From contig CAVWYF010000027.1 in assembly GCA_963759095.1 (NCBI GenBank), positions 1 to 24,000 of the forward strand: a stretch of 24,000 nt of DNA, in the 5' to 3' direction. Positions 1 to 20,751 of the stretch are shown here, one piece after another; position 1 is the first letter of the stretch, and every line of letters starts with the position of its first letter. The notes under the pieces were generated by a model. That model was not told the origin of the DNA. It was given only the letters and a program-made list of their open reading frames with translations, and searched no databases. Origin of the DNA: an uncultured Alphaproteobacteria bacterium. GTDB taxonomy: Bacteria; Pseudomonadota; Alphaproteobacteria; Rhizobiales; Aestuariivirgaceae. Both the position numbers and the translations under genes were made by a program.

Positions 1-271
1 TTGACAGCCTATTCCGTTGAAAAATTGCACATTTGCCTCAGGTCCAAAAAATTTCTGCCTCATAGAGATGGTTCCGGAAATTTTGGCCGAGGTGGTAGTG
101 AGCAAATTTAGCGGCGGCTTTCGATATTTGCCTCTCATAGCGAAAATGTAGACTCCGCTATTCTCGAGTTTTTCAACGGAATATGCCAAAAGCGGCAACG
201 CGCTTAAAAAGAGACCGCATGTAGTTAGGAACGTCACCGGCATCCACTGCTGCCTCGCGTACAAGCCCACT

Positions 272-776
272 CTAATAGAGATGTAAACTCAGTACCGAGC
301 GGATAATATGAATGTCTGCACCAAACCCGAGTTCTCTTCCAATAGACCCAGCCTCGTAAATGTCTGTCGACTTGCCGACATAAAGGTACTCAATCCGCGA
401 CGATAACCACTTGTTACCTGGCCAGAACATTTCCACTCCGCCACCAGCCGTCCAACTTGTCTGCCATTTGCTATCTGTGACGGTCGGCGAGGCGACCACC
501 AGCGGGGGGAGACGTAGTCAGCGTGGTATTAAATACAGCTGGGCCGCCAGCGGCAAAAGCAAGAAACTGGTTCTCTTCACCAAAGGTCATACCAACTCGG
601 CCGCGCACCGTAATCAAGCCACCGATCTCAGCCGTACAACTTCTGGGCGCGCCACCAAGGCAGTCTGTCAACGATGCGTCCATGTTTGAGGTCATTGCAT
701 CCGCCTCTACCCCAAACAGCATCCTGTCTTGAGTGTGGTTCCAACCAACACCCAGTCCAAACAGGGTAGGCAGCAA
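272..776 (-). pseudogene. Outer-membrane beta-barrel protein remnant (Omp25/Omp31/porin-family type), 5'-truncated and frameshifted
   Basis: Two adjacent minus-strand ORFs (471..776 and 272..499) sit in frames offset by 1. They read ...GLGVGWNHTQDRMLFGVEADA...VRGRVGMTF... and ...WTAGGGVEMFW...RIEYLYV...SVLSLHLY (terminal aromatic residue), a typical OMP beta-barrel pattern. The frames can only be joined inside the G6 run at 504-509. Only about 168 codons remain, with no signal peptide and an in-frame stop at 795-797. Confidence 0.7.
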
Positions 777-1578
777 ATGGATTGCGAACGTAAATCAGCG
801 GTCTTATGCCACGGCATAGATTTCCCACTCCGATTCGAGACCACAGTACTCCCGACACATCTGCAAATCGTTCATTTAGAAATGCAGTCCGAGGTATCGG
901 CTCGCCACCGTACCGTTCAATAACAGGAGCGCTTTCATGACCCTGCTCAACGAGTTCACCAGTCTCCGAATTGATAGTCACGTACGCATTGCCGATGGGA
1001 AACAATGAGCTGAGAATAAGAGGCGGTTCTTCGCCAACGTAAGCTCCAAAACGGCACGCGCTAATGGCGATGATTCTAACATCTTCCGGATTTATCACAC
1101 CTTCTCGGATATATCCTCTGATGCGTTGGCTCTTGGTCCAAAATGCACTCGTGGTTCTCAACTGAGCTTGACGAGTGGGGGCATGAGCAAATGCTCCGTT
1201 CTCATCTAAGGGCGGTGGGCCGACAACCTGATCTGGCCCAGGCTCGCCGATGTCTGGGGCTATGGCCTCGATCCAGGTTCGTTGTCCATTCTCCAAAATG
1301 CACAAGTCGGGTTGACCGCCTTCCTGAAGTCTCTCCGATGTCGGGAGGAGAGTTCGACCTGTTTGGAGCAAAGTTTGACCAAGATACATTTCCCAGAATC
1401 GCCCATCGAGATCGCGTGCGAACCCGGGGCGAAAGTCGGGGTCGGCATAAGGTTCATAAGTTTGCCACATCGCCTCTATTTGCTCATGGAGTTCTTGCTC
1501 CACTCGAAATTGAGGGTTGCGCAAGTTCACAAAACCGGGATCAAGGTTATCACCGTCGAAATCGAATAATGGCGGCAT
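628..1578 (-). CDS. Hypothetical protein, 316 aa; possible restriction-endonuclease-like (PD-(D/E)xK-type) core; 3' end reads out of frame across the OMP remnant
   Basis: Long ORF with protein-like composition. The segment FWEMYLGQ...GGQPDLCILENGQRTWIEAIAP (E63, D91, E104) resembles an E...PD...(D/E)x(K) nuclease core but lacks the canonical Lys. I recognise no family. About the last 49 codons (nt about 628-775) overlap the OMP remnant on the same strand in another frame. Confidence 0.6.
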   Translation of the reverse strand: MPPLFDFDGDNLDPGFVNLRNPQFRVEQELHEQIEAMWQTYEPYADPDFRPGFARDLDGRFWEMYLGQTLLQTGRTLLPTSERLQEGGQPDLCILENGQRTWIEAIAPDIGEPGPDQVVGPPPLDENGAFAHAPTRQAQLRTTSAFWTKSQRIRGYIREGVINPEDVRIIAISACRFGAYVGEEPPLILSSLFPIGNAYVTINSETGELVEQGHESAPVIERYGGEPIPRTAFLNERFADVSGVLWSRIGVGNLCRGIRPLIYVRNPFAAYPVWTGCWLEPHSRQDAVWGRGGCNDLKHGRIVDRLPWWRAQKLYG

Positions 1579-1610
1579 TCTTCAAATCCCCATTCGTGGA
1601 TGGTTAGAGG

Positions 1611-2435
1611 ATGGAAAAAACTTCTCTAGAGCAGATAATATGGCAGGTTCTCGTCGATAGCGCCCCTGAACGCGAGGGCGAACTATCTGCAATCTGGCAT
1701 GAATTGAATCCAATTGTACAACTGTTAGCAGACGTTCATGTTGGTGAGCGAATTGTATTCGACGCGGGTGCATACCGATATGTGCGTTTCAACCATCGGG
1801 TGATGCGGGCGTTCTGGATTGCAGGGTTTGCAGCTTGGGAAGCGTATAGATCGGTAGCCAGAAGTAGCAAACTTGGCCTAGATACAGCTCAATTTGATCA
1901 GCTATTAACAGCATTCGAGAAAGTGATTTCGGACGAAGATCCAACCCTTGCTCCTTTGCCCCAGGGTGTGGCGGAGCCGGGTCAATATCCAGATGTCGAA
2001 GAAGACCCAGAGGGACGAGCAGCCTCAGAATTAGCCACCATTGGAGTCGCGTGGGCTTTGCTGCACGAACTTCGTCATATCCAACATCAGCGTGACGGAA
2101 CAGGCGCAAAGCCCTTTGTCGTTGGCCGCTATGAGTACCACAGAGAAGAATTTTCGTGCGACGATTTCGCCACCTCGTACTTGTTAGAGAGAACTCAAGA
2201 TTATGCAGATTCCCAATGTGTAAGTGTTGAATTAGTCAGGCAAAAGAGACAACTCGGTATCTATTTCGGCTTGTTCGCTGTCAGCTTAATAGCAAAAGAC
2301 AAGTGGCAAGCCACGGATACCCATCCGTCAGTGCAAGAACGGATTGATTCAGTTCGCAACCAGATGGCAGGCGAGAAATCAGAGATAGCCGCAGCTATCG
2401 CCCATGTCGCATTCGCCACACTTAGACAAAGATAG
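1611..2435 (+). CDS. HExxH zinc-metallopeptidase-like protein, 274 aa (ImmA/IrrE / M78 / COG2856-like signature; Lit/U49-like alternative)
   Basis: HELRH sits at residues 152-156 (nt 2064-2078). It is followed 23 aa later by EEFSCDDFATSYLL (nt 2145-2186), matching the ImmA/IrrE pattern HExxH...E-x-E-(A/C)-(N/D)-x-FA-x-x-LL. The 140-aa N-terminal region is unassigned. ATG 1611 is the only plausible start, because a TAG lies two codons upstream in frame; AGAGG abuts the ATG. Confidence 0.7.
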   Translation: MEKTSLEQIIWQVLVDSAPEREGELSAIWHELNPIVQLLADVHVGERIVFDAGAYRYVRFNHRVMRAFWIAGFAAWEAYRSVARSSKLGLDTAQFDQLLTAFEKVISDEDPTLAPLPQGVAEPGQYPDVEEDPEGRAASELATIGVAWALLHELRHIQHQRDGTGAKPFVVGRYEYHREEFSCDDFATSYLLERTQDYADSQCVSVELVRQKRQLGIYFGLFAVSLIAKDKWQATDTHPSVQERIDSVRNQMAGEKSEIAAAIAHVAFATLRQR

Positions 2436-2570
2436 CCAAGCGCCCCAAATCCATATTGACATTTAGCGTTTGGAGCTATGGCCAAGCAACTTTTGGCTTC
2501 GCACTTACACGGGAACTACACGCAATGTGTATGGGTTGGAGGTCATCGTAACCTAAGTCATTGAAAAAAC

Positions 2571-2646
2571 TGGTGCCCAGGGGCGGAATCGAACCACCGA
2601 CACGCGGATTTTCAATCCGCTGCTCTACCAACTGAGCTACCTGGGC
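2571..2646 (-). tRNA. tRNA-Phe (anticodon GAA)
   Basis: The reverse complement folds as a 76-nt cloverleaf. Acceptor is GCCCAGG/CCTGGGC, D arm GCTC-AGTTGGTA-GAGC, anticodon arm GCGGA-TTGAAAA-TCCGC (GAA) and T arm GGTGG-TTCGATT-CCGCC, with an encoded CCA. Confidence 0.95.
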
Positions 2647-2780
2647 ATACGGGCCGGATGAAGAATCCCTCATGCGACCGCAGCGGTTTATAGGTGATCG
2701 TCCGGCACCTGTCCAGCGTCAACCAACATACATCGTGACGGTTTTCTTAAGCCTTAATACTCGGCTGCCCGGCGGCCGCC

Positions 2781-3035
2781 TCAGCTGTTCTCGCTGCCAT
2801 CGTCGCGCTTGGGCGACAAGGTCTCTCCGGTCTCGTCGAAATCAGGCGCATCGGTGGCCGGAATGGCATACTGGCCGCCCAGCCAGCGGTGCAGGTCGAC
2901 GTCGGCGCACCTGGCTGAACAAAACGGATGGTATTTCTGTTTTGACGGCTGCTGGCACAGCGGACACGGGCGCCTGGTGCGCAACCTTATCGGTGGTTCC
3001 GGTTTCTTGCCGCCTGAACCTTTTTGATCGCTCAT
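2781..3035 (-). CDS. yacG: DNA gyrase inhibitor YacG (zinc finger)
   Basis: The sequence MSDQKGS...[36 protein letters not shown] matches the YacG CPxC...FCSxRC..DL..W motif. Start was moved to ATG 3035, one nt after the maf stop; the longer ORF-track start at 3125 overlaps maf. Confidence 0.85.
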
Positions 3036-3036
3036 A

Positions 3037-3663
3037 TCAGGTCTCCGTAACCCACTTTCCGTAAACCGGATATCCGCCGGCCTGCAGCATCTGCACGGTT
3101 TCATGCAGCGGCAGACCAACAACACAGGTGTACGACCCGCTCATCCAGCGCACGAAAGCCGCCGCCTTGCCCTGGATGGCATAGCCGCCGGCCTTGCCGC
3201 GCCATTCATCACTCATCAGGTAGGCATCCATGTCAGACCGCATCAGCCGCTTGAAGCGGACCTTGGTGTCGACAACCCTGGAGCGTTCGCGCCCGTCGGG
3301 CGACACCACCGCAATGGTTGTAAATACCCTATGCGAGCGCCCCGACAACAGTCTTAACGCATCACGCGCCTCATCGGTCGACTGCGGCTTGTCAATCACC
3401 CGCCGGCCGACGCTGACCACCGTATCAGCCGCCAACACGAAGACGTTTTCCCCCAGATTGCGCACCAGCGGTGCAGCGCGCGCTGCCTGGGCTTTCTCGC
3501 GCGCCAGCCGCAGCGACAGCGCCCTGGGAGATTCGCGCTTGCGCCGGGTCTCGTCAATATCCACCGGGTTGAGCAGGTCCGGATAAATGCCCACCTGTTC
3601 AATCAATGCCAGCCTGCGCGGCGAGGCGCTGGCCAGTACCAGCTTTGCATCGGTAATCGACAT
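3037..3663 (-). CDS. maf: Maf-like nucleoside triphosphate pyrophosphatase / septum formation protein
   Basis: The N-terminus [19 protein letters not shown], then ...ADTVV...GKP.., then a C-terminal AGGYAIQG motif are all typical of the Maf family. Confidence 0.9.
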
Positions 3664-3757
3664 GTCGTGAGCCTTTTGAACCCTGCTGAGAGCATCATTC
3701 TAGATTGAAGCGGTATGTGCTACAGATTCTGGGCAATTGTCCAGCATCACGGCAAGT

Positions 3758-3779
3758 CTTACGATGTTTTCATCGTAAG
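3758..3779. other. Perfect 9-bp stem / 4-nt loop hairpin spanning the stop codon of the LMW phosphatase gene
   Basis: cttacgatg-tttt-catcgtaag occupies 3758-3779. No U-tract follows it in the minus (sense) orientation, so it is not a canonical intrinsic terminator. Confidence 0.4.
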
Positions 3780-4219
3780 TTTGGCAGGCCGGTTTCGCCG
3801 AACCGGTCCCGCATCCGCTTGATGAGATGGTCCCTGCAGGCGCGATAGGCATCCAGTACCTGCTCCCGGCTGCCCATCTCAAGCGACGGGTCCATCGTCG
3901 GCCAGTACACCACATCAATGGCCATGGTCCGGGTCAGCTCCATGGCCTTGTGATGGGCTTCCGGCGACAACGACACCACCAGGTCAAAACTGGAATCGAC
4001 AAGATCGTCGAACGACTTGGCCTTGTGTTTGGAAATATCGACGCCGATTTCGTCCAGCACCTCGATAATGAACTCGTCGCGCTTGCCCGGACGCACCCCG
4101 CAACTGTCCACAAACACCCGGTGGCCGTAATAATACTTCATGATCCCTTCGGCCATGGGCGAGCGGATGGCATTGTGCGAGCAGCAAAACAGCACAGCAC
4201 CTGGCAGGTCCGCGCTCAT
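3770..4219 (-). CDS. Low-molecular-weight protein-tyrosine phosphatase / ArsC-like family protein
   Basis: The N-terminal P-loop VLFCCSHNAIRSPMAEG fits the CX5R(S/T) signature of LMW-PTPs. Its 149-aa size is typical. Confidence 0.85.
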   Translation of the reverse strand: MSADLPGAVLFCCSHNAIRSPMAEGIMKYYYGHRVFVDSCGVRPGKRDEFIIEVLDEIGVDISKHKAKSFDDLVDSSFDLVVSLSPEAHHKAMELTRTMAIDVVYWPTMDPSLEMGSREQVLDAYRACRDHLIKRMRDRFGETGLPNLR

Positions 4220-4240
4220 ATGGCAGAACCTCGCATTGTT

Positions 4241-4504
4241 ATACCAAAGGAACTAACTATTGACCCTTTTGACCGATTTTTCGCGTTTGTCGGCGAGGCA
4301 TGCTTCACGCCTTGGTCTGGCCGACCACAAGTGGAGCATAACGACGTCCGGCGGACGCGAAAAACCGGCCTTCGGTGGGCCAAATCCGTCCATCTGCTGC
4401 GTTGCGGCGCTTGCCCGATGCACCACATCGCGCTACGCACCGCGCCTGCCAGAGTGAACGGATTTGACTCCATCAAAAGGGTCAATAGTTAGTTCCTTTG
4501 GTAT
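4241..4504. mobile_element. MITE-like element: 32-bp perfect terminal inverted repeats flanking a 200-bp GC-rich core
   Basis: ATACCAAAGGAACTAACTATTGACCCTTTTGA at 4241-4272 is the exact reverse complement of 4473-4504. If the outer A/T pair is assigned to the flank, 31-bp TIRs (4242-4503) are bordered by direct TTA at 4239-4241 and 4504-4506. The element fills the whole intergenic gap between the UPF0262 stop and the phosphatase start. Confidence 0.65.
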
Positions 4505-4980
4505 TAGCCGCGCCAATGCAGCACGCACACCAGCGTGAACAACCGCCGCGCAGTGTCAAAATCCACGACAATCTTGCCGTCCAGCCGGTCCATCAGCACC
4601 TGGCTGCCTTCATTGTGCAGGCCGCGCCGGGCCATGTCGATGGTTTCAATCTGGCTGGGCGTGGCAGTGCGAATGGCCTGATAATAGCTTTCACAGATGC
4701 CGTAATAGTCCTTCACAATGCGTCGCAGCGGCGACAGGGCCAGCACGATGACACTCAAAGTGTCTCCGGCCTCGCTGCACACATTGAACACCAGCTTGGT
4801 GCCGTCGATTGACAGGTTGAGGGAGTAGGGCCCTTCCGGTTTGCCAACGACCTGGAAACTGTTGCTCTCGAGCAGATCGTAGATCGCCACTTTTCGCTCG
4901 TGGTCCACGTCGGCAGAGAAGGTCTTGGACAGCGTATTGTCAAGGTTGACGGCGACCAGTTTGTTGTTGTCGGTGTCCAT
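4504..4980 (-). CDS. UPF0262 family protein
   Basis: The sequence ...[15 protein letters not shown]...[23 protein letters not shown]...[15 protein letters not shown]...[15 protein letters not shown] is the pattern I recall for alphaproteobacterial UPF0262 proteins. It sits next to hisD. Confidence 0.8.
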
Positions 4981-5053
4981 GTCCCGGGCTTCCAGAGCGT
5001 TTGCGGTGAGTCGCGCGATCTAACTGCCTTATTCGCTTCGCATAAGTGAAGGG

Positions 5054-6349
5054 TCAGGGCAAGTTCAACCGCATGGCGACCGAGCGTGCATGGGCTTCCA
5101 GCCCTTCCGCGCGCCCTATTGTGATGGCATCCGGACCAATGGCGCGCAACGCATCTGCACTGCATTTCAGAATGGATGTGCGCTTCATGAAGTCGAGCAC
5201 ATTGAGCCCGGAAGAATACCGCGCACTACGCGCTGTCGGCAGCACGTGATTGGGGCCGCCGACATAATCGCCGACGGCTTCCGGCGTAAACGCGCCCAGG
5301 AATATGGCGCCGGCATTGTGTACGGCCGCGGCAATCTCGTCCTCGTTCCGGCACACGATTTCAAGATGTTCCGGTGCCAGCCGGTCCACCAGCCCCACCG
5401 CATCCATGAGGTTGTCGACGGTGATGATGCAGCCGAATTCGCGCCAGCTCGCCCCGGCAATGTCCGCCTTCGGCAAGGTTGCAAGCTGTGTCTCAACCGC
5501 TTCCGCCACCTCGCGCGCTAGTTGCTCGCTGTCGCATATCAAGATCGACTGGGCTGACGGGTCATGTTCTGCCTGCGCCAGAAGATCAGCCGCAATCCAG
5601 CCCGCATTGGCACTGCCGTCAGCCATCACGAGAACCTCGGACGGACCTGCAATCATGTCGATACCGACCGTGCCGAACACCTGTCTTTTGGCCGCTGCCA
5701 CAAAGGCATTGCCCGGACCGACGATCTTGGCGACCGGCTCTACAGTGTCAGTGCCGAAAGCCAACGCTGCAATGGCTTGCGCACCGCCAATGGTGTGGAT
5801 CTCGGTGACACCGGCAATGCGCGCTGCCGCAATCACCTGGGCGTTGATGACGCCTTTTGGTGTCGGCACCACCATGACCAGGCGGTCAACGCCGGCCACG
5901 CGCGCCGGGATCGCATTCATCAGCACTGAAGACGGATAGGCGGCAAGCCCGCCCGGCACATAAAGCCCGGCTGCCTGAACCGCGCTCCAGCGATGGCCAA
6001 GCTCGACACCTGATGCATCCGTATAGCGCTCACCGGCTGGTACCTGCCGGCCGTGATAGGCCTGGATGCGGGCCGCGGCCGCCTCCAGTGCAGCCAGAAT
6101 GTCAGGCGGGCATTTATCGGCTTCCAGTTTGATCTGGTCGGCTGACATGCGGGCACCGGTGTCAGGCAGATCAAACCCGTCGAACTGTTTTGTGTAGTCG
6201 CGTACTGCCGCATCACCACGGGCTTTGACGTCAGCAAGAATGCCGGCCACGGCGTCATTAACGTCTGCGGACTGTTCACGCTTGTCGCCCAGCAGCCTGG
6301 CAAACTCGGCCTCGAAACCGGCATCATTGATGTTCAGCCAGCGTGTCAT
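5054..6349 (-). CDS. hisD: Histidinol dehydrogenase
   Basis: The 431-aa product contains typical HisD blocks: ...YVPGGLAAYPSSVLMNAIPARVAGV, IGGAQAIAALAFGT, GPGNAFVAAAKR, AGPSEVLV, AQAEHD and GDYVGGPNHVLPT. Confidence 0.95.
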   Translation of the reverse strand: MTRWLNINDAGFEAEFARLLGDKREQSADVNDAVAGILADVKARGDAAVRDYTKQFDGFDLPDTGARMSADQIKLEADKCPPDILAALEAAAARIQAYHGRQVPAGERYTDASGVELGHRWSAVQAAGLYVPGGLAAYPSSVLMNAIPARVAGVDRLVMVVPTPKGVINAQVIAAARIAGVTEIHTIGGAQAIAALAFGTDTVEPVAKIVGPGNAFVAAAKRQVFGTVGIDMIAGPSEVLVMADGSANAGWIAADLLAQAEHDPSAQSILICDSEQLAREVAEAVETQLATLPKADIAGASWREFGCIITVDNLMDAVGLVDRLAPEHLEIVCRNEDEIAAAVHNAGAIFLGAFTPEAVGDYVGGPNHVLPTARSARYSSGLNVLDFMKRTSILKCSADALRAIGPDAITIGRAEGLEAHARSVAMRLNLP

Positions 6350-6819
6350 TCGGTTGCGTCCTGTGTGCTGGTGTCTTCAGGCCCTGCGTCATGGTCCGGC
6401 CGTGCGCGCGCCGGCCAGGCCTCACTCAGGTCTGCAATTGCCACCTCGATACACTCAACCTCGATACGTACAGCACCACCGCCTGCAAACGACAGTTCGA
6501 TGGTGCCTTCCGGCGCCTCAGCGCCTGGAATGAACGTCATGGCAAGCAGCGATACGATTGCCGGCTTGTCGCTCATGATGATATTGCGTGCGCTCACACG
6601 GCGGACCCGGGATATCTGAACACCGCACAGCCGCCGCTCGCCGGTGCCTGCCTTGTTGCCGAAATGAACATAGCGGTTGGCCACAATCGACAGCTTGCCC
6701 GCGCTCTTCATCCAGCGAAGATCGCCCACCGGCAAGACTGCATCCTGCAAATGCGCGGAAATGACGGCCAGATCCTCTTCATCCAGCGCAGCTATTTTTA
6801 TAGCGGGAGTGTCGGCCAT
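6346..6819 (-). CDS. DUF2948 family protein
   Basis: IKIAALDEEDLAVISAHLQDAV... matches the DUF2948 pattern usually found between murA and hisD in Alphaproteobacteria. It overlaps the hisD start by 4 nt (ATGA). Confidence 0.75.
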   Translation of the reverse strand: MADTPAIKIAALDEEDLAVISAHLQDAVLPVGDLRWMKSAGKLSIVANRYVHFGNKAGTGERRLCGVQISRVRRVSARNIIMSDKPAIVSLLAMTFIPGAEAPEGTIELSFAGGGAVRIEVECIEVAIADLSEAWPARARPDHDAGPEDTSTQDATE

Positions 6820-6935
6820 GTGCTTGGTCGCTTTTTGCTTTCAACCCTCAGGAACAGGGGTTGTCTATAGCATGTTGCACGGAAAGTGGGAGCGGTTTTG
6901 CAAACCAGAACATAAGGGGAGATCAAAGATACGAT

Positions 6936-8225
6936 TTAGTCGGAGATGCGCGAGATATCGGCACCACATGCACTGAGCTTGTCTTCCAGTGTTTCGAAAC
7001 CGCGATCAAGATGATAGACCCGGTGCAGCATGCTTTCGCCTTCTGCCGCAAGGGCCGCAATCACCAGTGACACCGACGCGCGAAGATCGGTGGCCATCAC
7101 CTCGGCCCCATGCAACTGATCCACGCCCGTTACGGTTGCGGTATCGCCACTGAGCGAAATGTCGGCGCCCAGGCGGGCCAGTTCCTGCACGTGCATGAAC
7201 CGGTTTTCGAAAATTGTCTCGCGAATGACGGAAGTCCCGCCGGCTCGCGTCATCAGTGCCATGAACTGCGCCTGCAGATCAGTCGGAAAGCCGGGATAAG
7301 GCTGGGTTTCCACATCGACCGGTTTCAGGCCATTGCCGTTGCGCCTGATCCTCATGCCGTCGTTTTCAACATCGATGGTGGCGCCTGCCTGTTCCAGCAC
7401 TGAAATCACGCTGGCCAGGTTGTCAGCCCGCCCGCCGCGCAGTTTGACATCGCCCCCGGTCATGGCCACAGCCATGGCATAGGTGCCGGTTTCGATCCGG
7501 TCTGCCAGAACCTCATGGCTTGCGCCATGCAGTTCATCGACGCCCTGTATGGTCAGTGTCGAGGTGCCGATACCGTCGATTTTGGCACCCATATTGACCA
7601 GGCATTCGGCAACATCGATGACTTCCGGCTCGCGCGCGGCATTCTCGATCACTGTTTCGCCCTTGGCCAGTGTCGCAGCCATCATGGTGGTGTGGGTTGC
7701 CCCGACAGACACCATCGGGAAGGTGATCCTGTTGCCTGTCAGGCCACCGGGCGCCCTGGCCACCACATAACCGTTTTCAATTTCAAGTTCTGCACCCAGT
7801 TCGCGCAGCGCCATGAGATAAAAATCCACCGGCCTTGTGCCGATTGCACAGCCGCCCGGCAGGGAAACGCGGGTATCATGAAAGCGGGTCAGCAACGGCC
7901 CGAGAACCCAGAAACTGGCTCGCATTTTTGACACGAGATTGTAGGGCGCCGTGGTGTCGACAATGTCAGCAGCGGTAAAATGCACCGTTTCACCGGCCTG
8001 GTTGCACTGGCCGGCGCGTTTGCCGTCGGTGCGCTGGTCAACGCCGTGATTGTGCAGAATGCGCTTCAGCAATTGCACATCAGCCAGCCGGGGCAGGTTT
8101 TTGAGCGTGAGTGTTTCAGCAGTCAAGAGACTGGCAATCATCAGGGGCAAAGCGGCATTTTTCGCGCCTGAAATCGGGATTTCGCCATTCAATTCGTTGC
8201 CGCCGCCGATTCTGATCCGGTCCAT
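6936..8225 (-). CDS. murA: UDP-N-acetylglucosamine 1-carboxyvinyltransferase
   Basis: The 429-aa product has the N-terminus [34 protein letters not shown]. It carries the active-site region [13 protein letters not shown] and the C-terminal YHLDRGFE. Confidence 0.95.
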
Positions 8226-8353
8226 GCTGTTTTCGTGCCCTTTTGATACAATCTGGAAAGTATGCTGCGATAGTGCCGCTTTGTGGCGCTTTCATGCACC
8301 TAAAGTGCCAGTTCCGGCAAGGGGCATGTAACGCAACGAAATATGGTTGATTT

Positions 8354-8497
8354 TCAGTCCTTTGCCTTATCGGAAATGTTTTTCTGATCGCCTGTTGCCG
8401 ACGATTTGCTGCGGGCCTGCTGCTTGCGCCGGGCAAGATTGCGCCTGAGCGCTTCTGCCAGGCGTTTTTCCCTTTCTGAAGCCGTTTCGCTGGCCAT
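8354..8497 (-). CDS. Small basic protein, 47 aa (hand-called; below the ORF-track cutoff)
   Basis: Hand translation gives MASETASEREKRLAEALRRNLARRKQQARSKSSATGDQKNISDKAKD*. ATG is at 8497-8495 and TGA at 8356-8354, with AAGGTGG about 8 nt upstream of the ATG. Its composition is far more plausible than the overlapping 130-aa ORF 8116..8508, which runs into murA. Confidence 0.5.
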   Translation of the reverse strand: MASETASEREKRLAEALRRNLARRKQQARSKSSATGDQKNISDKAKD

Positions 8498-8643
8498 GCC
8501 TGCACCACCTTCGAATTAGCGATTATTGAACCTTCATAATGTAGGCATGAGACATGTTATTGTCATGCAGGTTCAATCATGCTTGCACAGTTTCAGTTGC
8601 TGTGGCATTACGCCTGCCATATTGCCGGGCCAGCCCGGGTCAT

Positions 8644-8718
<75 letters not shown>

Positions 8719-8925
8719 TATTTTTCCCGGAAAACAGACTTTTTGTGTGGCCATGTGTAACGGGATGTGTCGGTTCGGGGGTATTCTCGTTCCTGTCTGG
8801 TTTTGCATCAGTGCTTGAAGGACAGTTGTGACTGAACGGTTGATGGAGAGTTTCTGGTTCAACCTCGCCGATCTGGCACGTAGACAGCAAGACATCCTGA
8901 AACGCTCTGAACGAAGCTGCTTCAA

Positions 8926-9435
8926 ATGACTGAGAACAAGCCGACTTTACATTTGCTCGTTGGAAAAATTGCCGCCGGAAAGTCGACCAGGGCGGCTGAA
9001 CTGGGCCGGGCGCCGGGCACAGTGGTTGTAAGCGAAGACCAGTGGCTGGCGGCACTGTTTGGAGATGAGCAGAACTCCATCGGTGATTACGTCCGCTGTT
9101 CTGCCCGGCTTCGAACCGCCATGGAGCCTCATCTGATTGCGCTTTTGCAGTCCGGTCTCTGCGTGGTTCTCGATTTTCCTGCCAACACAATTGCAATGCG
9201 TACATGGGTTCGAAGGTTGCTGGACAAAGCCGGTTGTGCGCACAAACTGCATTTTCTGGATATTGCAGACGACGTTTGCAGGGAACGGTTGCACGAGCGC
9301 AATGCCGCAGGGAACCATGCCTTCTCAGCCACTGATGAACAGTTTGATCTCATCACCAGGCATTTCGTAGCACCATCCGCCGAAGAGGGGTTCCAGGTTG
9401 TTGTGTATCACCGCGATGAAACCGGCGAGAAATGA
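8926..9435 (+). CDS. P-loop NTPase / AAA_33-like kinase family protein, 169 aa
   Basis: Walker A is LLVGKIAAGKST at the N-terminus, followed by a hydrophobic strand plus Asp (VVLDFPAN). The size and layout are typical of small stand-alone P-loop kinases. Confidence 0.75.
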   Translation: MTENKPTLHLLVGKIAAGKSTRAAELGRAPGTVVVSEDQWLAALFGDEQNSIGDYVRCSARLRTAMEPHLIALLQSGLCVVLDFPANTIAMRTWVRRLLDKAGCAHKLHFLDIADDVCRERLHERNAAGNHAFSATDEQFDLITRHFVAPSAEEGFQVVVYHRDETGEK

Positions 9436-9685
9436 TCGGACCTACACCGTGTGTTCTTGATGTGGTTTTTGGGAAACGCTGAAAACGCCGTTTTTCAGTT
9501 GTTGAATTCCCCGCGCAACTGTAACGTGCGACAGGTGCACCGGAACCGGTCAGCACAAGTCGGCGGTTAATGGCAATATTACTGGATTGATACATCGTTT
9601 ACCTCTCATTGTTGGGTAAATCTGTGTGTGTTGCGTAAGCTTTTAGTCACGTAAAACCACGTTTACGGCAGTGTTTGAGGGGGTA

Positions 9686-10411
9686 ATGCAGGAACTGGAC
9701 CCGCTTAGGATCAACCAGATTGTGACGCGGCTGCACATGCAGGTTGTTGCGGTACATGGAATCGAGATCGCTACCAGTGTCGACTTTGACCGTTTTGCAA
9801 CGGTCAGGGCGCAATTGCGCGATGACGCCATTTCGCCCTACTTCGATCCGCAGCATAATGGCCCTGAACTTTCGCAATCGGCCTTCTGGATTGAAGGGCG
9901 CAAGGATGGCGAACCGGTCTATGTAGAAGCCTATCGTCTCTATGAACCAAGCGGGCCGTTCAACCACTGGTGTCGTGCATGGCTGATGGACGCGCACACC
10001 AGGGCAGGCGAGGATGTGCACATTGGTTCGGTTTCCGAACCTATGTCTGATCCGGTCTCACGGTTGGGCGGCCGTATGGCCTACCGAGGTGAACTGTTCA
10101 TGTCGCCGGCCCTGCGCGGAGGCCCCAAGAGCCGGTTGATCAACGACATTTCGCTGCTTCATCACGCTCTGGTCTGGGGGTACTGGAAACCGGACTACAT
10201 CTGGGGTTTGACGACCGAGAGCAGAGCACAGCGCGGCATGCTTCGCCGCATCTATTACAACCACCTGGAAGAGGGATTTATTGTCTGGAAACGCCGGCCT
10301 GCGTGTGTGGAACAGGAGCGCGAAACCCTGTGCTACCAACCGCGCCATCAGATCATCAGGGACCTTGCTGCAGTCAGTCTAGGCTATCAAACGTCTACCG
10401 GCACTTCGTAA
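9686..10411 (+). CDS. Hypothetical protein, 241 aa (weak GNAT-fold-like C-terminal pattern)
   Basis: The ORF is long. I prefer ATG 9686 over the ORF-track GTG 9671 because GAGG lies at 9677-9680, 5 nt upstream. The segment YRGELFMSPALRGGPKSRLINDISLLHHALVWGY...DYIWGLTTE...RGMLRRIYYNHLEEGF loosely resembles GNAT strand4-helix3-strand5-helix4. I recognise no family. Confidence 0.6.
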   Translation: MQELDPLRINQIVTRLHMQVVAVHGIEIATSVDFDRFATVRAQLRDDAISPYFDPQHNGPELSQSAFWIEGRKDGEPVYVEAYRLYEPSGPFNHWCRAWLMDAHTRAGEDVHIGSVSEPMSDPVSRLGGRMAYRGELFMSPALRGGPKSRLINDISLLHHALVWGYWKPDYIWGLTTESRAQRGMLRRIYYNHLEEGFIVWKRRPACVEQERETLCYQPRHQIIRDLAAVSLGYQTSTGTS

Positions 10412-11226
10412 CCGGACCGCCCAAACGGTTCCAGACGATCAGGACGTGTCTCACCTTGCATGAGCAATGATCCAATGGTGATTTTCTGTCCGCTCTGCAC
10501 TGGAAACAGAACACGGTGATAGCGCAGCCAGTAGGCTTCAGCTTGTCCCTGCGCCGGTATCAGCGCCATGCATTCATCAAACAGAACCTGGCGATGTTCC
10601 GACACTTCAAGATACCTGTCGTAGACATGGATCTCCGTCTGTGTGAAACGTTCATCCAGCCGGAACTGCTTCCCCTGACACCAGTCCACCCCCATGATTT
10701 TCCCGAGCGGTGTGCGCGCTCCGACCTCACGGATCGGAAAACCGCCGTCCGGGTCGTCATCTGAGAACACCAGCCGGGACGCGATCAGCCGCGGTGACCT
10801 GATTGCCCGTCTGACATTGCCGGGGATTGAACCGGGGTCTCTTGGTGCCTGTAACGCAGATTGGAGCATTGAAACTTTCAGGCCCTGCAAAAACGCCATC
10901 CGGTCTGAGGCTTCCTCGGGGGTGTCGAAGCGCTCCGCAAACCATCCTTGATTGTAGAAGTTCAGGAAATACGGCGCCGGCATAGCGCCAAGGTTGGCTG
11001 CTGCAAACTGCAGGCTGTCGGGTGTGGCGTAAGCGGTATCCCACTGCACCTCGGTTGCGTATGCGTCATTGGCCGATATGAACGGTCTCATGCATACCAG
11101 GCCAAATCCTCGAAACGGCAAATCATTGTCGGTGAACGGATATCCCGTCAGGTCCCCAACAACCTGACCGCGGTCAATCCAGTTGTATTGGTCGCCATGT
11201 ACCTGTGTGGTTGTCACATTTTTCAT
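10387..11226 (-). CDS. Hypothetical protein, 279 aa (possible PAS-like C-terminal sensor fold; unassigned)
   Basis: This long ORF has its ATG overlapping the stop of the upstream HTH gene (ATGA at 11223-11226). The C-terminal pattern ...YDRYLEVSEHRQVLFDE...AYWLRYHRVLFPVQSGQKITIGSLL resembles the end of alphaproteobacterial PAS_5-type domains. That resemblance comes from memory only. Confidence 0.6.
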   Translation of the reverse strand: MKNVTTTQVHGDQYNWIDRGQVVGDLTGYPFTDNDLPFRGFGLVCMRPFISANDAYATEVQWDTAYATPDSLQFAAANLGAMPAPYFLNFYNQGWFAERFDTPEEASDRMAFLQGLKVSMLQSALQAPRDPGSIPGNVRRAIRSPRLIASRLVFSDDDPDGGFPIREVGARTPLGKIMGVDWCQGKQFRLDERFTQTEIHVYDRYLEVSEHRQVLFDECMALIPAQGQAEAYWLRYHRVLFPVQSGQKITIGSLLMQGETRPDRLEPFGRSGYEVPVDV

Positions 11227-11474
11227 TTGTCGCGTTCGACTTTGGGAAACGGGATTATATTGGACTGTTCGTTCGGTCCGAACAAATCTGTCAGGGAAAG
11301 GCCCAATACTGCGCCCATTTCAATAATTGTTGACGAATGGCCGAGTGTGGCTCCGGCTTCAATGTCCAGAACCGTTCCAATCGCAATGTCCATGTCGCTG
11401 GCCAGTTGCTGAACTGAAATCTTCTTTGAAACCCGCGCGTAGTGCAATCGCGTACCAATATAGCCATGTTTCAT
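11223..11474 (-). CDS. XRE-family helix-turn-helix transcriptional regulator, 83 aa
   Basis: IGTRLHYARVSKKISVQQLASDMDIAIGTVLDIEAGATLGHSSTIIEMGAVLGLSLTDLF is a classic HTH_XRE layout. I prefer ATG 11474, which has AGGGGGG about 7 nt upstream. The ORF-track start at 11669 adds 65 low-complexity residues. Confidence 0.75.
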   Translation of the reverse strand: MKHGYIGTRLHYARVSKKISVQQLASDMDIAIGTVLDIEAGATLGHSSTIIEMGAVLGLSLTDLFGPNEQSNIIPFPKVERDK

Positions 11475-11764
11475 CTTAGACCCCCCTGATGTTGATTCCG
11501 GCGAATCGGTCGATAATTGTACAACGGGCGGTCGCAAGTCATCACGGAATAAATTGTCGCCATTCAGTTTTGAAACCCGGTGTACCGCAGTGATCACGAA
11601 ATCTCTCGTCCGAGGATTTTCTACTCCTGCCCGGTTCCTTGCGGCGCCGTCTGACTCCATTGCCATCAACTCTCATTAAATAACGCTACGTTAATCTGCG
11701 CGGAAGTGTCAATCAGTGCTCTTGTTCGCTGGATATCCCTGCATGCTCGGGTTAAAAGGCTTTC

Positions 11765-13289
11765 ATGGCAGACACTCTCAAGCAGACGCAATCTTCCGAA
11801 CGCCTTTACGCAGATCAGGGAATTCAGCTTTCCCGCGTCTTTTTTGTCATCGGCATGATGATGCTGGTGCTGACGCTGTTCATGTTTCCGCCCCTGGTGT
11901 CGGATCTTGTCGCCCGGAATGATGACTGGAGCGTGTTTGCGGCTTCCGCCTTCGTGACCGGCTTCCTCGGCCTCATGCTGGTGCTGGTCAGCCGCGGCGG
12001 CTGGTCGGACCATGTCTCCTTGAAGGAAGGTTTCGTGCTGACGGTGCTCAGCTGGATAGCGCTGTGCCTGATGGCGTCGATTCCGTTCATGTTCCTGGGC
12101 CGTGATGCCAGTGTTGCCAATGCACTGTTTGAAGCGGTTTCCGGCCTGACCGCAACCGGTGCAACGGTGCTGACCGGTCTCGATCACCTGCCGCCCGGCA
12201 TGTTGTTATGGCGTTCGATCCTGCAGTGGATCGGCGGCGTCGGCATCGTCGTCATGGCGCTGGTCATGCTGCCGTTCCTGCGCGTCGGCGGCATGCAGCT
12301 GTTCCGTGCTGAAAGTTCCGACCGCTCCGACAAGTTCATGCCGCGCGTCGGCGAGGTCATCAGCCTTATCGCGGTCACCTATCTGTCCCTGACATTCGCC
12401 TGCGGATATTGCCTATTACTGGGCCGGCATGAACGCGTTCGATGCGCTCAATCACGCCATGACGACCGTCTCGACGGCAGGTTTTTCGACCCATGACCGG
12501 TCGTTCGCGCATTTTGAGGACAACAAGGCCATCCACTGGATTGCCATTGTCTTCATGCTGGGCTCATGCATGCCGCTGGTTCTGTACGTCAAGATGGTGC
12601 GGTCAAGATCGCTGGCAGTGTGGAATGACGCCCAGGTGCGCGGCTTCGTCCAGATTTCCGGTCTTGCGGTCTTCACCGTGACCTTGTGGTATTATGTGCG
12701 TCACGACGAACCGTTCCTGGACGCGCTCAGGGTGGTCAGTTTCAATGTTGTTTCCATCATTTCGACGACCGGATATGCCTTGGGCGATTATACCAACTGG
12801 GGCAGCGGCATCATGGGGCTGTTTTTTGCCCTGATGTTCCTGGGCGGATGCACGGGGTCGACAACCGGTGGCCTGAAGACCTTCCGTCTTCAGGTCATGA
12901 TGATGACGGCCTCGGGCTATATTCGCCAACTGATGAGCCCGAACCGCATCGTGGTCCTGAACTTCAATAATACCAGGATCACCAACGAAATCGCCACATC
13001 GGTGCTGGCCTATGTCACCGTCATGTTCATATCGGTCATGGTGTTCACCATTGCCTTGTCATTTTTTAATCTTGATCTGATTACCGCGCTGTCCAGTGCC
13101 ACTGCCACGATCACCAATGTAGGCCCGGGTCTGGGAGACATTGTCGGGCCGGCCGGCAGCTATGCCAACCTGGATCCGGGCGCGAAACTGCTGTTGACCG
13201 TGTCCATGTTGCTGGGGCGGCTGGAATTCTTCACCGTGCTCGTGGTGCTGTCACGCTCGTTCTGGCGTAAAAACTCATCAAGATTCTAG
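11765..13289 (+). pseudogene. trkH: TrkH-family potassium uptake protein, interrupted by one frameshift
   Basis: ORFs 11765..12496 and 12429..13289 are the two halves of TrkH (...EAVSGLTATGATV..., ...NHAMTTVSTAGFST..., ...GGCTGSTTGGLKT..., ...TITNVGPGLG...). Removing one G from the GGG at 12421-12423 restores ...GYCLLLAGMNAFDALNHAMTT. Confidence 0.85.
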
Positions 13290-16524: not shown

Positions 16525-18483
<1,959 letters not shown>

Positions 18484-18575
18484 GATCAGGACCCATTAAG
18501 TCGAGCTGAGTTTCAAGGTCGGCTTGGTGGACTTTGCGATCGTTCATTAACGGTTAGTCATCGGCGAAACCAGTT

Positions 18576-19223
18576 TCACGGATGCCCAACCAGCTTCATG
18601 GTACTCACATCTCCATCTACTACGAATGCTTCGCCATCTCGGAGTGTGCGATAGGCGATTTCGTTGTTCTCATAAAACTCGACTTCTTTCTCAGCGTCAG
18701 CAGATTCCGAGTGATCAGATTTGTAGTGGACGACTACTGCGTGAGGTAGAATGTCTAGTCCTTCCCATATCGTATCTTCCACATAGCCTTCAGGAACATC
18801 CGCAGGATCATCCACCATTTCAAGACCATGCAGGCTGGGGGCAAGAATGACTACCCCTGCGCTAAATCCGGCATAAACGATTTGATCTGCGGCAAGTAAA
18901 TCCTTGATAAGATAGTCGAAACCGCTTGTTCGCATCGCACGGCGTAGAACGAAAGTGTTCCCGCCGTTCACCCAGACCATATCCAGTTCCATCATTTTTT
19001 GATGTAGCGCTTCTGGTGCGTTGAAGTACTTCCGCAAATCAACTTCCTCAACGGTCATGGCTAGGTCAGCGAAAGTTGACAGTTGTTCAGCAAGCCATTT
19101 CTCTCGAGATTTCTCGAAATTATCGAGAGCATTCATAATAACGCCCACATGCGCGTCCGGCGACAGTTTTACAAGCTCAGCATGTGCGTTTCCAACACGG
19201 AATGATGACAGATATAGCCTCAT
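18576..19223 (-). CDS. Peptidase S51 (dipeptidase E-like) / type-1 glutamine amidotransferase-like protein
   Basis: MRLYLSSF..., VWVNGGNTFVLRRAM and the nucleophile elbow VYAGFSAGVVILAP are S51 hallmarks. Start was set to ATG 19223; the ORF-track TTG at 19250 is also possible. Confidence 0.75.
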   Translation of the reverse strand: MRLYLSSFRVGNAHAELVKLSPDAHVGVIMNALDNFEKSREKWLAEQLSTFADLAMTVEEVDLRKYFNAPEALHQKMMELDMVWVNGGNTFVLRRAMRTSGFDYLIKDLLAADQIVYAGFSAGVVILAPSLHGLEMVDDPADVPEGYVEDTIWEGLDILPHAVVVHYKSDHSESADAEKEVEFYENNEIAYRTLRDGEAFVVDGDVSTMKLVGHP

Positions 19224-19432
19224 ATCAGGACGGTATCGTAAGCGTTGCAAACATAAAAGCGTTGTCAGGTTGTAATAGTTTTTCTAGCCGAATGTGTCCG
19301 CTTTGGACTCAGAGCAGTCGTTTCGCTCAACCTAAATCAATAAGTTTTGACGCCAGACGTTTCCAACTTTGATATAATCCTCAAGTCATTTTTGAGGCCG
19401 CTGGCAAGTCACGGTTCCCACTATGGCCCGGT

Positions 19433-19810: not shown

Positions 19811-20530
19811 CTATTGGCTAAGAATTTTTTTCAAGTCGGGCAGATCGGGTTTGGTTGCTGTCAAATCCAGCCCGTCCTGAATGTGCATCAGGTGTTGGCA
19901 GACAATATTTTCCGCCAGTGCCGCATCTCCTGCCTCAATGGCTCCAAGTATCTTTGCATGTTCGCCGTCCGGACATGTCGATTTTCCGGAATCGCCAAAA
20001 AGACCAACAATCAGAGATGTTCGAGTTACCAGTTCACCGATCATTCTGGTTAGAACTGCGTTTCCGCTGACGGACGCCAGCTTGACGTGAAACTCACCGG
20101 ACAGGCGGATGATCTCGGCCCGTTCGGGGTTGCTGCGCGCTGTATCTTCCATCGTTATGTGTTTTCTCAGATCAGCAAGATCACTTTTGCTGATGACTGA
20201 GGTAACTACGCTGATCAGGCCGGGTTCTATCAGTTTGCGAGCCTCGAAAACGTCGTTCGCCTCCTTCGCATCTGGACAGGCGACGAATGCACCACGGTTG
20301 GCTTGAAGATCGATAATGCCCTGGCTGGCCAGCAACAGAAGTGCGCGGCGCACACGCATGCGTCCAACGCCGAAGCTCTCACACAATTGCAATTCGCTCA
20401 GCTTGGTTTTTGGGGCCAGGCGTTGCTCCATCACTGCCGCGTAGATGCGATCGACAATGATCTGTTCGTCAGGATCTGACGCAAACCGATGTATCAAGGC
20501 ATATCCTCTGAGTCCAAAATCCTGGGCCAA
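19811..20530 (-). CDS. GntR-family transcriptional regulator, FadR/FCD subfamily
   Basis: The winged-HTH block is LAPKTKLSELQLCESFGVGRMRVRRALLLLASQGIIDLQANRGAFV. It is followed by an all-helical C-terminal domain with His residues (FHVKL..., EHAKILGAIEAGD), typical of FCD. The start codon is uncertain (TTG at 20530). Confidence 0.8.
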   Translation of the reverse strand: MAQDFGLRGYALIHRFASDPDEQIIVDRIYAAVMEQRLAPKTKLSELQLCESFGVGRMRVRRALLLLASQGIIDLQANRGAFVACPDAKEANDVFEARKLIEPGLISVVTSVISKSDLADLRKHITMEDTARSNPERAEIIRLSGEFHVKLASVSGNAVLTRMIGELVTRTSLIVGLFGDSGKSTCPDGEHAKILGAIEAGDAALAENIVCQHLMHIQDGLDLTATKPDLPDLKKILSQ

Positions 20531-20585
20531 CTAACTGTTTCTGCAAGGAATCGCTCAACCAGTTTCGCCACCATAGCTCATGAGT

Positions 20586-20653
20586 ATTGTTAACGGAAAC
20601 AAGAATGTTGCTGACGTTGGATTCGAAAATTGTTGACGATCATTGTTAACAAT
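20586..20653. promoter_or_regulatory. Three ATTGTT(A/G)AC repeats, one forming a perfect 12-bp palindrome: candidate GntR-type operators
   Basis: ATTGTTAAC is at 20586-20594 and ATTGTTGAC at 20629-20637. ATTGTTAACAAT (a perfect palindrome) is at 20642-20653. All lie in the divergent region between the GntR-type gene and the ABC operon. GT..AC palindromes are the known GntR-family operator style. Confidence 0.45.
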
Positions 20654-20751
20654 CGTTTTATTAGGGAGATACGAAACTTGGGAATTCCCGATCTTCGGTC
20701 GATTCTGGCGTGTGATCCGCCGGACAAGTAGAAACACTATGGGAGGTGAAC

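Follow-up and report, generated by a model that had tools for sequence, protein, structure and literature searches.

Do two genes set back to back beside a tRNA gene constitute a defence system, or are they what is left of one? The locus that raises this question lies near the start of a 24,000-nucleotide (nt) stretch of DNA from an uncultured marine alphaproteobacterium (contig CAVWYF010000027.1, positions 1 to 24,000), here called the window; a cassette of ~1.8 kb (765-2570), held between the 3' end of a tRNA-Phe gene and a decapitated gene for an outer membrane protein (OMP), carries two divergent open reading frames (ORFs), named ORF-A and ORF-B. The original prediction, made from the DNA letters and a list of ORFs, described them as an uncharacterised two-gene module in which a metallopeptidase is paired with a nuclease-like protein, acting in phage defence or abortive infection or in the manner of a toxin-antitoxin (TA) pair. 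In the reading favoured here, to which a probability of roughly 0.7 is given, 765-2570 is a decayed remnant of a strain-specific defence island inserted at tRNA-Phe and holds two unrelated, normally autonomous defence genes. The features on which the argument turns are the following.

272-764, minus strand: pseudogene of an OMP_b-brl (opacity/Omp25-like) protein, without codons 1-85 of 249 and with two 1-nt deletions near 489 and 492.
628-1578, minus strand: the ORF of 316 amino acids (aa) as called, that is ORF-A plus a tail.
628-765, minus strand: spurious tail of the 316-aa ORF (codons 272-316), OMP-derived DNA read in the wrong frame.
766-1578, minus strand: codons 1-271 of ORF-A, the genuine part of a gene that belongs to an unnamed family of ~308 aa and has lost its 3' end.
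1579-1610: spacer of 32 nt between the divergent starts (1578 and 1611).
1611-2435, plus strand: ORF-B, a HExxH metallopeptidase of the Lit family (Peptidase_U49), 274 aa, with a premature TAG at 2433-2435.
2436-2570: island-proximal spacer, GC 0.46, whose first 24 nt (2436-2459) still spell the former end of ORF-B, PSAPNPY and a stop.
2571-2646, minus strand: tRNA-Phe(GAA), intact (ARAGORN; Rfam tRNA model, 71.6 bits), its 3' end (2571) forming the island boundary.

The truncations can be established directly by comparison with intact relatives. An undamaged homologue of the OMP (P0380, 249 aa, 93% identical, matching PF13505) and its intact locus (L062, from the same metagenome as one of two short contigs on which the cassette recurs, L005) show that the gene's first 85 codons and the DNA upstream of them are absent from the window, as the original description of a decapitated gene implied. 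The L062 locus aligns to window positions 764..218 at 95.4% identity; this alignment ends at 764, and the junction between ORF-A and the OMP gene therefore lies at 764/765. Because of two 1-nt deletions near 489-492 relative to L062 (window 485-495), the OMP remnant is frameshifted as well as 5'-truncated. On the other side of the junction, residues 1-273 of ORF-A match residues 1-272 of a 310-aa homologue (P0003) at 71% identity, and most of the ORF-A alignments listed in an exhaustive search end near residue 270-285; the tail encoded by codons 272-316 has no counterpart in any ORF-A homologue. The 38 residues lost from ORF-A include a terminal β-hairpin (strands 281-288 and 291-296 of the P0003 structure model) and a PLPxGW..EY motif that is conserved even in the defence protein PD-T7-1. 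These alignments show the 316-aa ORF to be an out-of-frame chimera of ORF-A and the OMP gene rather than a protein that occurs in nature: what had been taken for a full-length protein of no known kind belongs to its family only in residues 1-271 (nt 1578-766), and its last 45 residues are OMP read-through. ORF-A is thus most likely a pseudogene. The exact 316-aa product is recorded from JGI gene calls only, which would fit its being treated as a pseudogene elsewhere. The original prediction had missed both the damage to the genes and the nature of the cassette as a deletion remnant.

The undamaged family to which ORF-A belongs is large and unnamed. A word index returned 285 homologues of ~308 aa, 59-73% identical to ORF-A and spread over Alpha-, Beta- and Gammaproteobacteria, and the exhaustive search extended the family to 1,709 representative clusters (at 50% identity); the best match among species-representative genomes is 72% identical. 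Against the PADLOC models, the window's ORF-A gives partial matches to PD-T7-5 (E 9.6e-4) and PD-T7-1 (E 7.3e-3), and a full-length homologue in L044 reaches 3e-7 for PD-T7-1 and 7e-7 for PD-T7-5; true PD-T7-1 homologues score 1e-83 to 1e-86 on the PADLOC model. A blastp comparison of ORF-A with a neighbouring PD-T7-1 relative yields ~22% identity (E 4e-5), and alignment of the two family profiles with hhalign gives a probability of 99% (E 4.2e-18), with residues 51-293 of the ORF-A family laid against 164-446 of PD-T7-1 over ~240 positions. By these comparisons the ORF-A family is clearly homologous to PD-T7-1 and PD-T7-5, two validated defence proteins, though shorter. The two share core motifs (RLFELYL/RFWEMYL, SPD/GPD and CWIEA/IWIEA) and a C-terminal VHNPxAxxPLP region, and members of the ORF-A family live in defence islands, often right beside a true PD-T7-1 homologue. 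By comparison with PD-T7-1, however, the family is ~308 aa long and lacks an N-terminal domain of ~150 aa and an insertion of ~50 aa, and the window's copy is in addition cut at residue 271; model-based defence annotation would be expected to leave it unlabelled (PADLOC E 1e-3 to 7e-3). PD-T7-1 and PD-T7-5 are reportedly single-gene anti-phage systems that Vassallo et al. obtained in 2022 by screening the E. coli pangenome, and reviews list them as single-gene systems of the PD-(D/E)xK type. Functional screening yielded PD-T7-1, which gives protection against both T-even and T7-like phages (PMC9519451; 10.1101/2024.12.20.629700).

A nuclease function for the ORF-A family is suggested by the arrangement of its conserved residues. 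The family is laid out as a helical N-terminus of 50 residues, a putative nuclease core and a β-rich C-terminal domain; in an alignment of 122 sequences, E63 and K149 are invariant and P90, D91, W102, E104 and A105 nearly so. An AlphaFold2 (AF2) model of P0003 has a predicted local distance difference test score (pLDDT) of 95.6 and sets E63 on a helix (57-72), P90-D91 at the start of a strand (92-96), the W102-x-E104-A105 motif on a strand (99-106) and K149 on a helix (135-158). This layout would likely correspond to a PD-(D/E)xK core with a relocated lysine, and the four putative PD-(D/E)xK residues (E63, D91, E104 and K149) are all kept in the window's ORF-A. As to phages and plasmids, no relative was found in the phage collection, a scan of IMG/VR with a narrower ORF-A alignment returned two loci only, and the plasmid collection held four weak relatives, three of them on conjugative plasmids. 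A prophage or plasmid origin of the cassette, considered as a candidate, is not supported in view of the lack of a phage-collection match and the weakness of the four plasmid matches.

ORF-B is easier to place. Lit is a textbook abortive-infection protease, and ORF-B matches Pfam PF10463 (Peptidase_U49) at 33.1 bits, above the gathering cut-off of 23.9 (E 5.9e-8), the PADLOC Lit model across residues 5-268 (E 1.9e-16) and NCBIfam PRK09672 (phage exclusion protein Lit) across residues 9-269 (E 2.4e-23). It also matches phrog_34061 (8e-63). Among its 109 homologues, those with an NCBI name (46-62% identity) go under "phage exclusion protein Lit family protein", and PF10463 is present in all close ones. 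ORF-B carries its HExxH motif as H152-E153-x-x-H156; across 94 aligned sequences H152, E153, E179, E180 and D184 are invariant and H156 and C183 nearly so. Membership of ORF-B in the Lit family, as that of ORF-A in its own, is established directly. On PRK09672, however, ORF-B scores 82.8 bits, far under the equivalog cut-off of 274 bits, and by these scores it is a member of the Lit family rather than the equivalog of E. coli Lit. ORF-B thus resembles the Lit of the E. coli K-12 e14 element (MEROPS/Pfam Peptidase_U49) in aligning with the PADLOC and NCBIfam models from end to end, in keeping HExxH and the other invariant acidic residues, in having the size of a single-gene system and in its mobile or defence-island contexts; it differs in its distance, in coming from a marine alphaproteobacterium and in the loss of its end, and about half of ten close ORF-B relatives directly follow a gene for a PDC-S06-type AAA ATPase. 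The original statement that no family could be assigned to either protein accordingly falls for ORF-B.

ORF-B is damaged as well. Its TAG (2433-2435) stands at a conserved Trp codon and is likely the outcome of a TGG-to-TAG mutation; the 24 nt that follow in the same frame still read PSAPNPY and a stop, against a family C-terminus of WPGAPNPY and a stop. The last eight residues, including a nearly invariant Pro, are thereby lost. The TAG is identical in three independent assemblies, the gene is recorded from NCBI, JGI and ENA, and the rest of the 274 codons hold no further frameshift or stop. The AF2 model of ORF-B (pLDDT 92.5) is mainly helical. With all catalytic residues in place, activity of ORF-B would be plausible but uncertain.

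The setting of the cassette is that of an island. HisD and Maf of the window have identical counterparts among the recorded proteins of Anderseniella sp. metagenome-assembled genomes, and the source contig measures 108,089 nt. Eight related Anderseniella contigs (L073-L080), chosen by an identical Maf protein, are all collinear with the window across hisD-UPF0262-LMWPc-maf-yacG-tRNA-Phe; homology then ends at 2571 in five of them, at 2565 in two and at 2572 in one, a contig that itself stops there. What lies past tRNA-Phe differs from contig to contig: a gene for an integrase-like protein of 394 aa in L074, L077 and L080, with a partial ORF at the same position in L078; two tandem tyrosine integrases in L075 and L076 (9295-11930 in L075, for example); a 348-aa gene of no assigned function followed by a large kinase gene in L073; and the end of the contig in L079. 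Since synteny breaks at the 3' end of tRNA-Phe in these contigs and the DNA beyond differs among them, the tRNA-Phe gene is a variable integration hotspot, established here by direct comparison, and the cassette is strain-specific accessory DNA. The same cassette is found at 99.9% identity on two short contigs of other datasets (L005 and L006). The claim of an island insertion point thus holds, as does that of an AT-richer cassette: GC is 0.501 in 765-2570 against 0.586 in the core genes at 2647-8600, and the cassette is the lowest-GC 1.8-kb segment of the whole 24 kb. Its start, put at ~780 in the original prediction, lies at 765.

In comparison with other tRNA-linked genomic islands, the window shows the same break of synteny at the tRNA 3' end and the same lowered GC, and its relatives carry integrase-bearing islands at this very place; it differs in that the integrase and the direct repeat of the tRNA end are missing and that the distal part has been deleted along with host DNA, so that 1.8 kb remain. 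Neither an integrase nor a helix-turn-helix (HTH) gene occurs among the ORFs of 1-2570, as had been noted before, and a search of the window for an attachment (att)-type repeat found no second copy of the tRNA-Phe 3' 25-mer within three mismatches; both absences fit the loss of the island's distal end by deletion. An empty tRNA-Phe/OMP junction, which the original prediction had proposed to look for in close relatives, was not encountered among them: no OMP gene lies in the 7-8.5 kb next to their tRNA-Phe, and the 277 nt upstream of the intact OMP gene in L062 contain no tRNA. Between the divergent starts (1579-1610) no convincing promoter was found, promoter and terminator scans doing no better than on shuffled sequence; a stop codon (TAG, 1605-1607) stands in frame directly upstream of the ORF-B ATG.

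Whether the two genes belong together was judged from the neighbourhoods of their homologues, at 55 genome loci for ORF-A and at ten metagenomic loci with close relatives of ORF-B. The lack of conserved pairing is directly established: the divergent arrangement occurs at none of the 55 ORF-A loci and is seen only in the strain's own sequence (L005 and L006), and no ORF-A relative lies within 7 kb at any of the ten ORF-B loci. The metallopeptidase and the nuclease-like protein, whose coordinates (divergent starts at 1578 and 1611, a 32-nt spacer, 316 and 274 aa) are just as originally described, are therefore not supported as the module proposed for them; they are not a conserved pair, and a single clade of ORF-A sits with another Lit-family peptidase. 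The recurrent arrangements observed are these.

ORF-A homologue, PD-T7-1 homologue and Lit gene in one block: L044 10001-13893, L004 8001-11329, L028 9998-13870 and ~22 other loci, in Alpha-, Beta- and Gammaproteobacteria.
ORF-A relative directly followed by a gene for a 270-290-aa protein that no model of Pfam or PADLOC matches: L001 8001-9745; L007, L015-L020 and L022 ~10001-11750.
ATPase gene followed by an ORF-B-type Lit gene: L067 4296-8743; L068, L069, L070 and L072.

A Lit-family gene is found near the ORF-A homologue at 25 of the 55 genome loci, as well as in L004, and at none of the remaining 30; five ORF-A loci have PD-T7-1 without Lit. Where Lit is present, it is always in one collinear block made up of the ORF-A homologue, a full-length PD-T7-1 homologue (PADLOC 1.6e-86), Lit and usually MUG113/T5orf172, with gaps of 12-49 nt between the genes, while the flanks vary (Wadjet and an insertion sequence in L004, AbiE/TIR/SIR2 in Afipia, and others, with ArdC and ParB-like genes also occurring around it). 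The PD-T7-1 genes of the block are 77-84% identical to each other and the Lit-linked ORF-A copies form one clade of at least 80% identity, so that the block appears to be essentially one mobile unit; it is a candidate composite system or mini defence island. The closest relatives of ORF-A (72% identity) keep different company, being translationally coupled to the gene of the unrelated 270-290-aa protein, whose start overlaps the ORF-A stop by 4 nt in L001 and whose two subgroups are 58% identical; the two genes are possibly a two-gene system, and the deletion in the window would have removed this partner. Other ORF-A relatives stand after an integrase-HigBA unit and before Gabija and a type I restriction-modification (RM) system, or beside TacAT and Dcm/Vsr, Wadjet, or AbiE, TIR and SIR2, and some stand alone; altogether their neighbours give matches to 358 PADLOC models, Gabija, SIR2-pAgo and AriA among them. 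For one distant family member (P0243) the context comes from a 1.3-kb contig only, and a minus-strand "cluster c1" that seemed to accompany ORF-A homologues is the antisense shadow ORF of ORF-A itself.

Close relatives of ORF-B, for their part, lie next to genes for an integrase, for a methyl-directed restriction enzyme or for an AAA ATPase of the PDC-S06 type. At five of the ten loci the Lit gene starts 8 nt after the gene of an 886-aa AAA_13 ATPase (PADLOC candidate PDC-S06, 7e-221), and the two are a possible operon. Homologues of both genes are thus found in defence islands. The expectation of a defence or abortive-infection locus is borne out to that extent, by homology to defence families and by context, and for ORF-B the guess of abortive infection was right in kind; what does not survive is the notion of an uncharacterised two-gene module. 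The window itself represents a second, independent juxtaposition of ORF-A and Lit, one that involves another ORF-A lineage and another Lit subfamily.

The simplest reading of these data is that two autonomous defence genes were joined in an island that was then trimmed by deletions. An island would have integrated at the 3' end of tRNA-Phe in the genome of an Anderseniella sp. As to substrates, triggers and the continued activity of ORF-B, what we infer is modelled on the E. coli system, in which Lit, once switched on by Gol, a peptide of the T4 major capsid protein, cuts EF-Tu and so arrests translation (PMC9712102; PMC13581612). By analogy with e14 Lit and Gol, ORF-B would lie dormant up to the appearance of a phage late protein; once activated, it could cleave a core translation factor (EF-Tu in E. 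coli), stop protein synthesis and so abort the infection. Proteins of the ORF-A family presumably cut nucleic acid on infection. ORF-A was broken by a single deletion, which took its last 38 codons, everything beyond them and OMP codons 1-85, and left it fused out of frame to the OMP remnant.

Several observations weigh against parts of this account. The nuclease assignment has to reckon with the fact that no Pfam or NCBIfam model matches ORF-A, that no nuclease model matches the PD-T7-1 homologues and that a Foldseek search of the P0003 model (PDB, BFVD) returned nothing significant (best E 0.03), although its sub-threshold matches are almost all PD-(D/E)xK nucleases (FokI, DdmD, Hjc, HincII and VRR-NUC); searches of the PDB by sequence and profile found no solved relative of ORF-A, of its family profile or of the PD-T7-1 homologues. 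For ORF-B likewise no PDB relative was found by sequence or profile, and Foldseek against the PDB gave noise only (E 1.5 or worse), so that its Lit assignment rests on sequence profiles; the structure searches envisaged in the original prediction therefore returned noise for one protein and sub-threshold hints for the other. ORF-B is moreover only ~25% identical to the other Lit subfamily, seen among the ORF-A-linked loci, and falls far below the equivalog cut-off; EF-Tu and Gol may thus not be its own substrate and trigger. The frequency with which the ORF-A family occurs near a Lit-family gene obliges a model of independent genes to invoke hitch-hiking within islands. Finally, the truncated ORF-A and the shortened ORF-B are 99.9% conserved in three datasets, an arrangement that is at least stable.

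This last point also bears on the view that both genes are dead relics and the cassette functionless island DNA still in decay, an explanation that we hold unlikely. It draws on the accumulated damage: ORF-A is fused to foreign sequence in place of its last 38 codons, ORF-B has a nonsense codon at its conserved Trp and is deprived of its nearly invariant Pro, the OMP gene next door is cut short and out of frame, the neighbours that relatives possess are gone for both genes, and no integrase, att repeat or standout promoter-like site is left. The catalytic body of ORF-B is nevertheless complete, with a confident model, every invariant residue and only eight terminal residues gone, its reading frame is otherwise clean, and the sequence is as good as unchanged across three samples. 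A more doubtful proposal is that the nuclease-like family and the Lit-family peptidases, together with the larger paralogue PD-T7-1, cooperate as a composite nuclease-protease system, in which one gene could be the sensor or licensing factor and the other the effector, the window pair being a remnant of a second, independently assembled version. The constant order of the ORF-A/PD-T7-1/Lit genes, close together on one strand within changing flanks, speaks for such cooperation, as do the window's independent joining of another ORF-A lineage to another Lit subfamily and the presence in L050 of both Lit subfamilies within 9 kb of an ORF-A homologue. However, the Lit-linked copies amount to a single clade and hence to essentially one mobile block; more than half of the ORF-A loci are without Lit, and five hold PD-T7-1 without it; the closest relatives are coupled to an unrelated gene instead; the ten loci of the ORF-B subfamily are devoid of ORF-A relatives; and the two genes of the window diverge, whereas those of the block run in one direction. 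In E. coli, Lit is described as acting alone (PMC9712102), and PD-T7-1 is catalogued as a single-gene system.

Two further explanations carry still less weight. The ORF-A family might serve an element-borne function in establishment, anti-defence or DNA processing and be present in islands as a passenger of elements, which seems improbable. Many homologues adjoin ArdC, DUF2958 and ParB_N-type genes, which are typical of the transfer regions of conjugative elements, and the plasmid matches, three in four on conjugative plasmids, together with the empty result from the phage collection, point the same way; against this stand neighbourhoods dominated by defence models, the position of homologues right after integrase-HigBA at island edges and beside Gabija and RM, and the 99%-probability homology to PD-T7-1, for which protection against phages is experimental (PMC9519451; 10.1101/2024.12.20.629700). 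The TA-like module of the original prediction, in which one protein would neutralise the other until infection, is very improbable indeed. Its circumstantial support is the tight juxtaposition of the genes in an island and the frequency of TA modules (HigBA, TacAT) near ORF-A homologues. Those TA genes, though, are separate and complete pairs; the two proteins of the window bear no resemblance to toxin or antitoxin, both being enzyme-like, of ~300 aa and, in profile scans, free of any antitoxin-type DNA-binding domain such as an HTH; and their genes are divergent rather than in one operon, in a pairing conserved nowhere else.

Elsewhere in the window a few features were recorded in passing. 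An 18-nt inverted repeat (7-24 and 169-186; 94% complementary, 144 nt apart) lies at the window start, in AT-rich DNA (GC 0.47) on the downstream side of the OMP remnant. Other low-GC patches (0.45-0.53) occur at ~8000-9800, around tRNA-Thr (8644-8718), and at 11000-11800, 18400-19400 and 20400-20800, and may be other variable regions; beside tRNA-Thr, gene content varies among the related strains, an Exostosin-type glycosyltransferase gene being present only in L074, L077 and L078. The Rfam scan of the window returned two tRNAs and nothing else.

The locus is an eroded defence islet composed of known kinds of gene, not a new two-gene or TA-like system, and as a small, damaged piece of DNA whose components can be recognised, found in a marine alphaproteobacterium not yet cultured, it is in itself of little import. 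It illustrates that a deletion followed by read-through can let a pseudogene pass for an intact protein of 316 aa that resembles nothing known. The ORF-A family is another matter: not named by Pfam, NCBIfam or PADLOC, homologous to the validated PD-T7-1 and PD-T7-5 and at home in defence islands, it is for these reasons a good candidate for the defence catalogues. With it come two candidate multi-gene systems, the ORF-A/PD-T7-1/Lit/MUG113 block and the coupled pair of ORF-A and the 270-290-aa protein; a composite coupling of nuclease and protease, if true, would be one not described before for Lit or PD-T7-1. As leads, this family and the gene blocks in which it recurs hold more promise than the locus through which they were reached.

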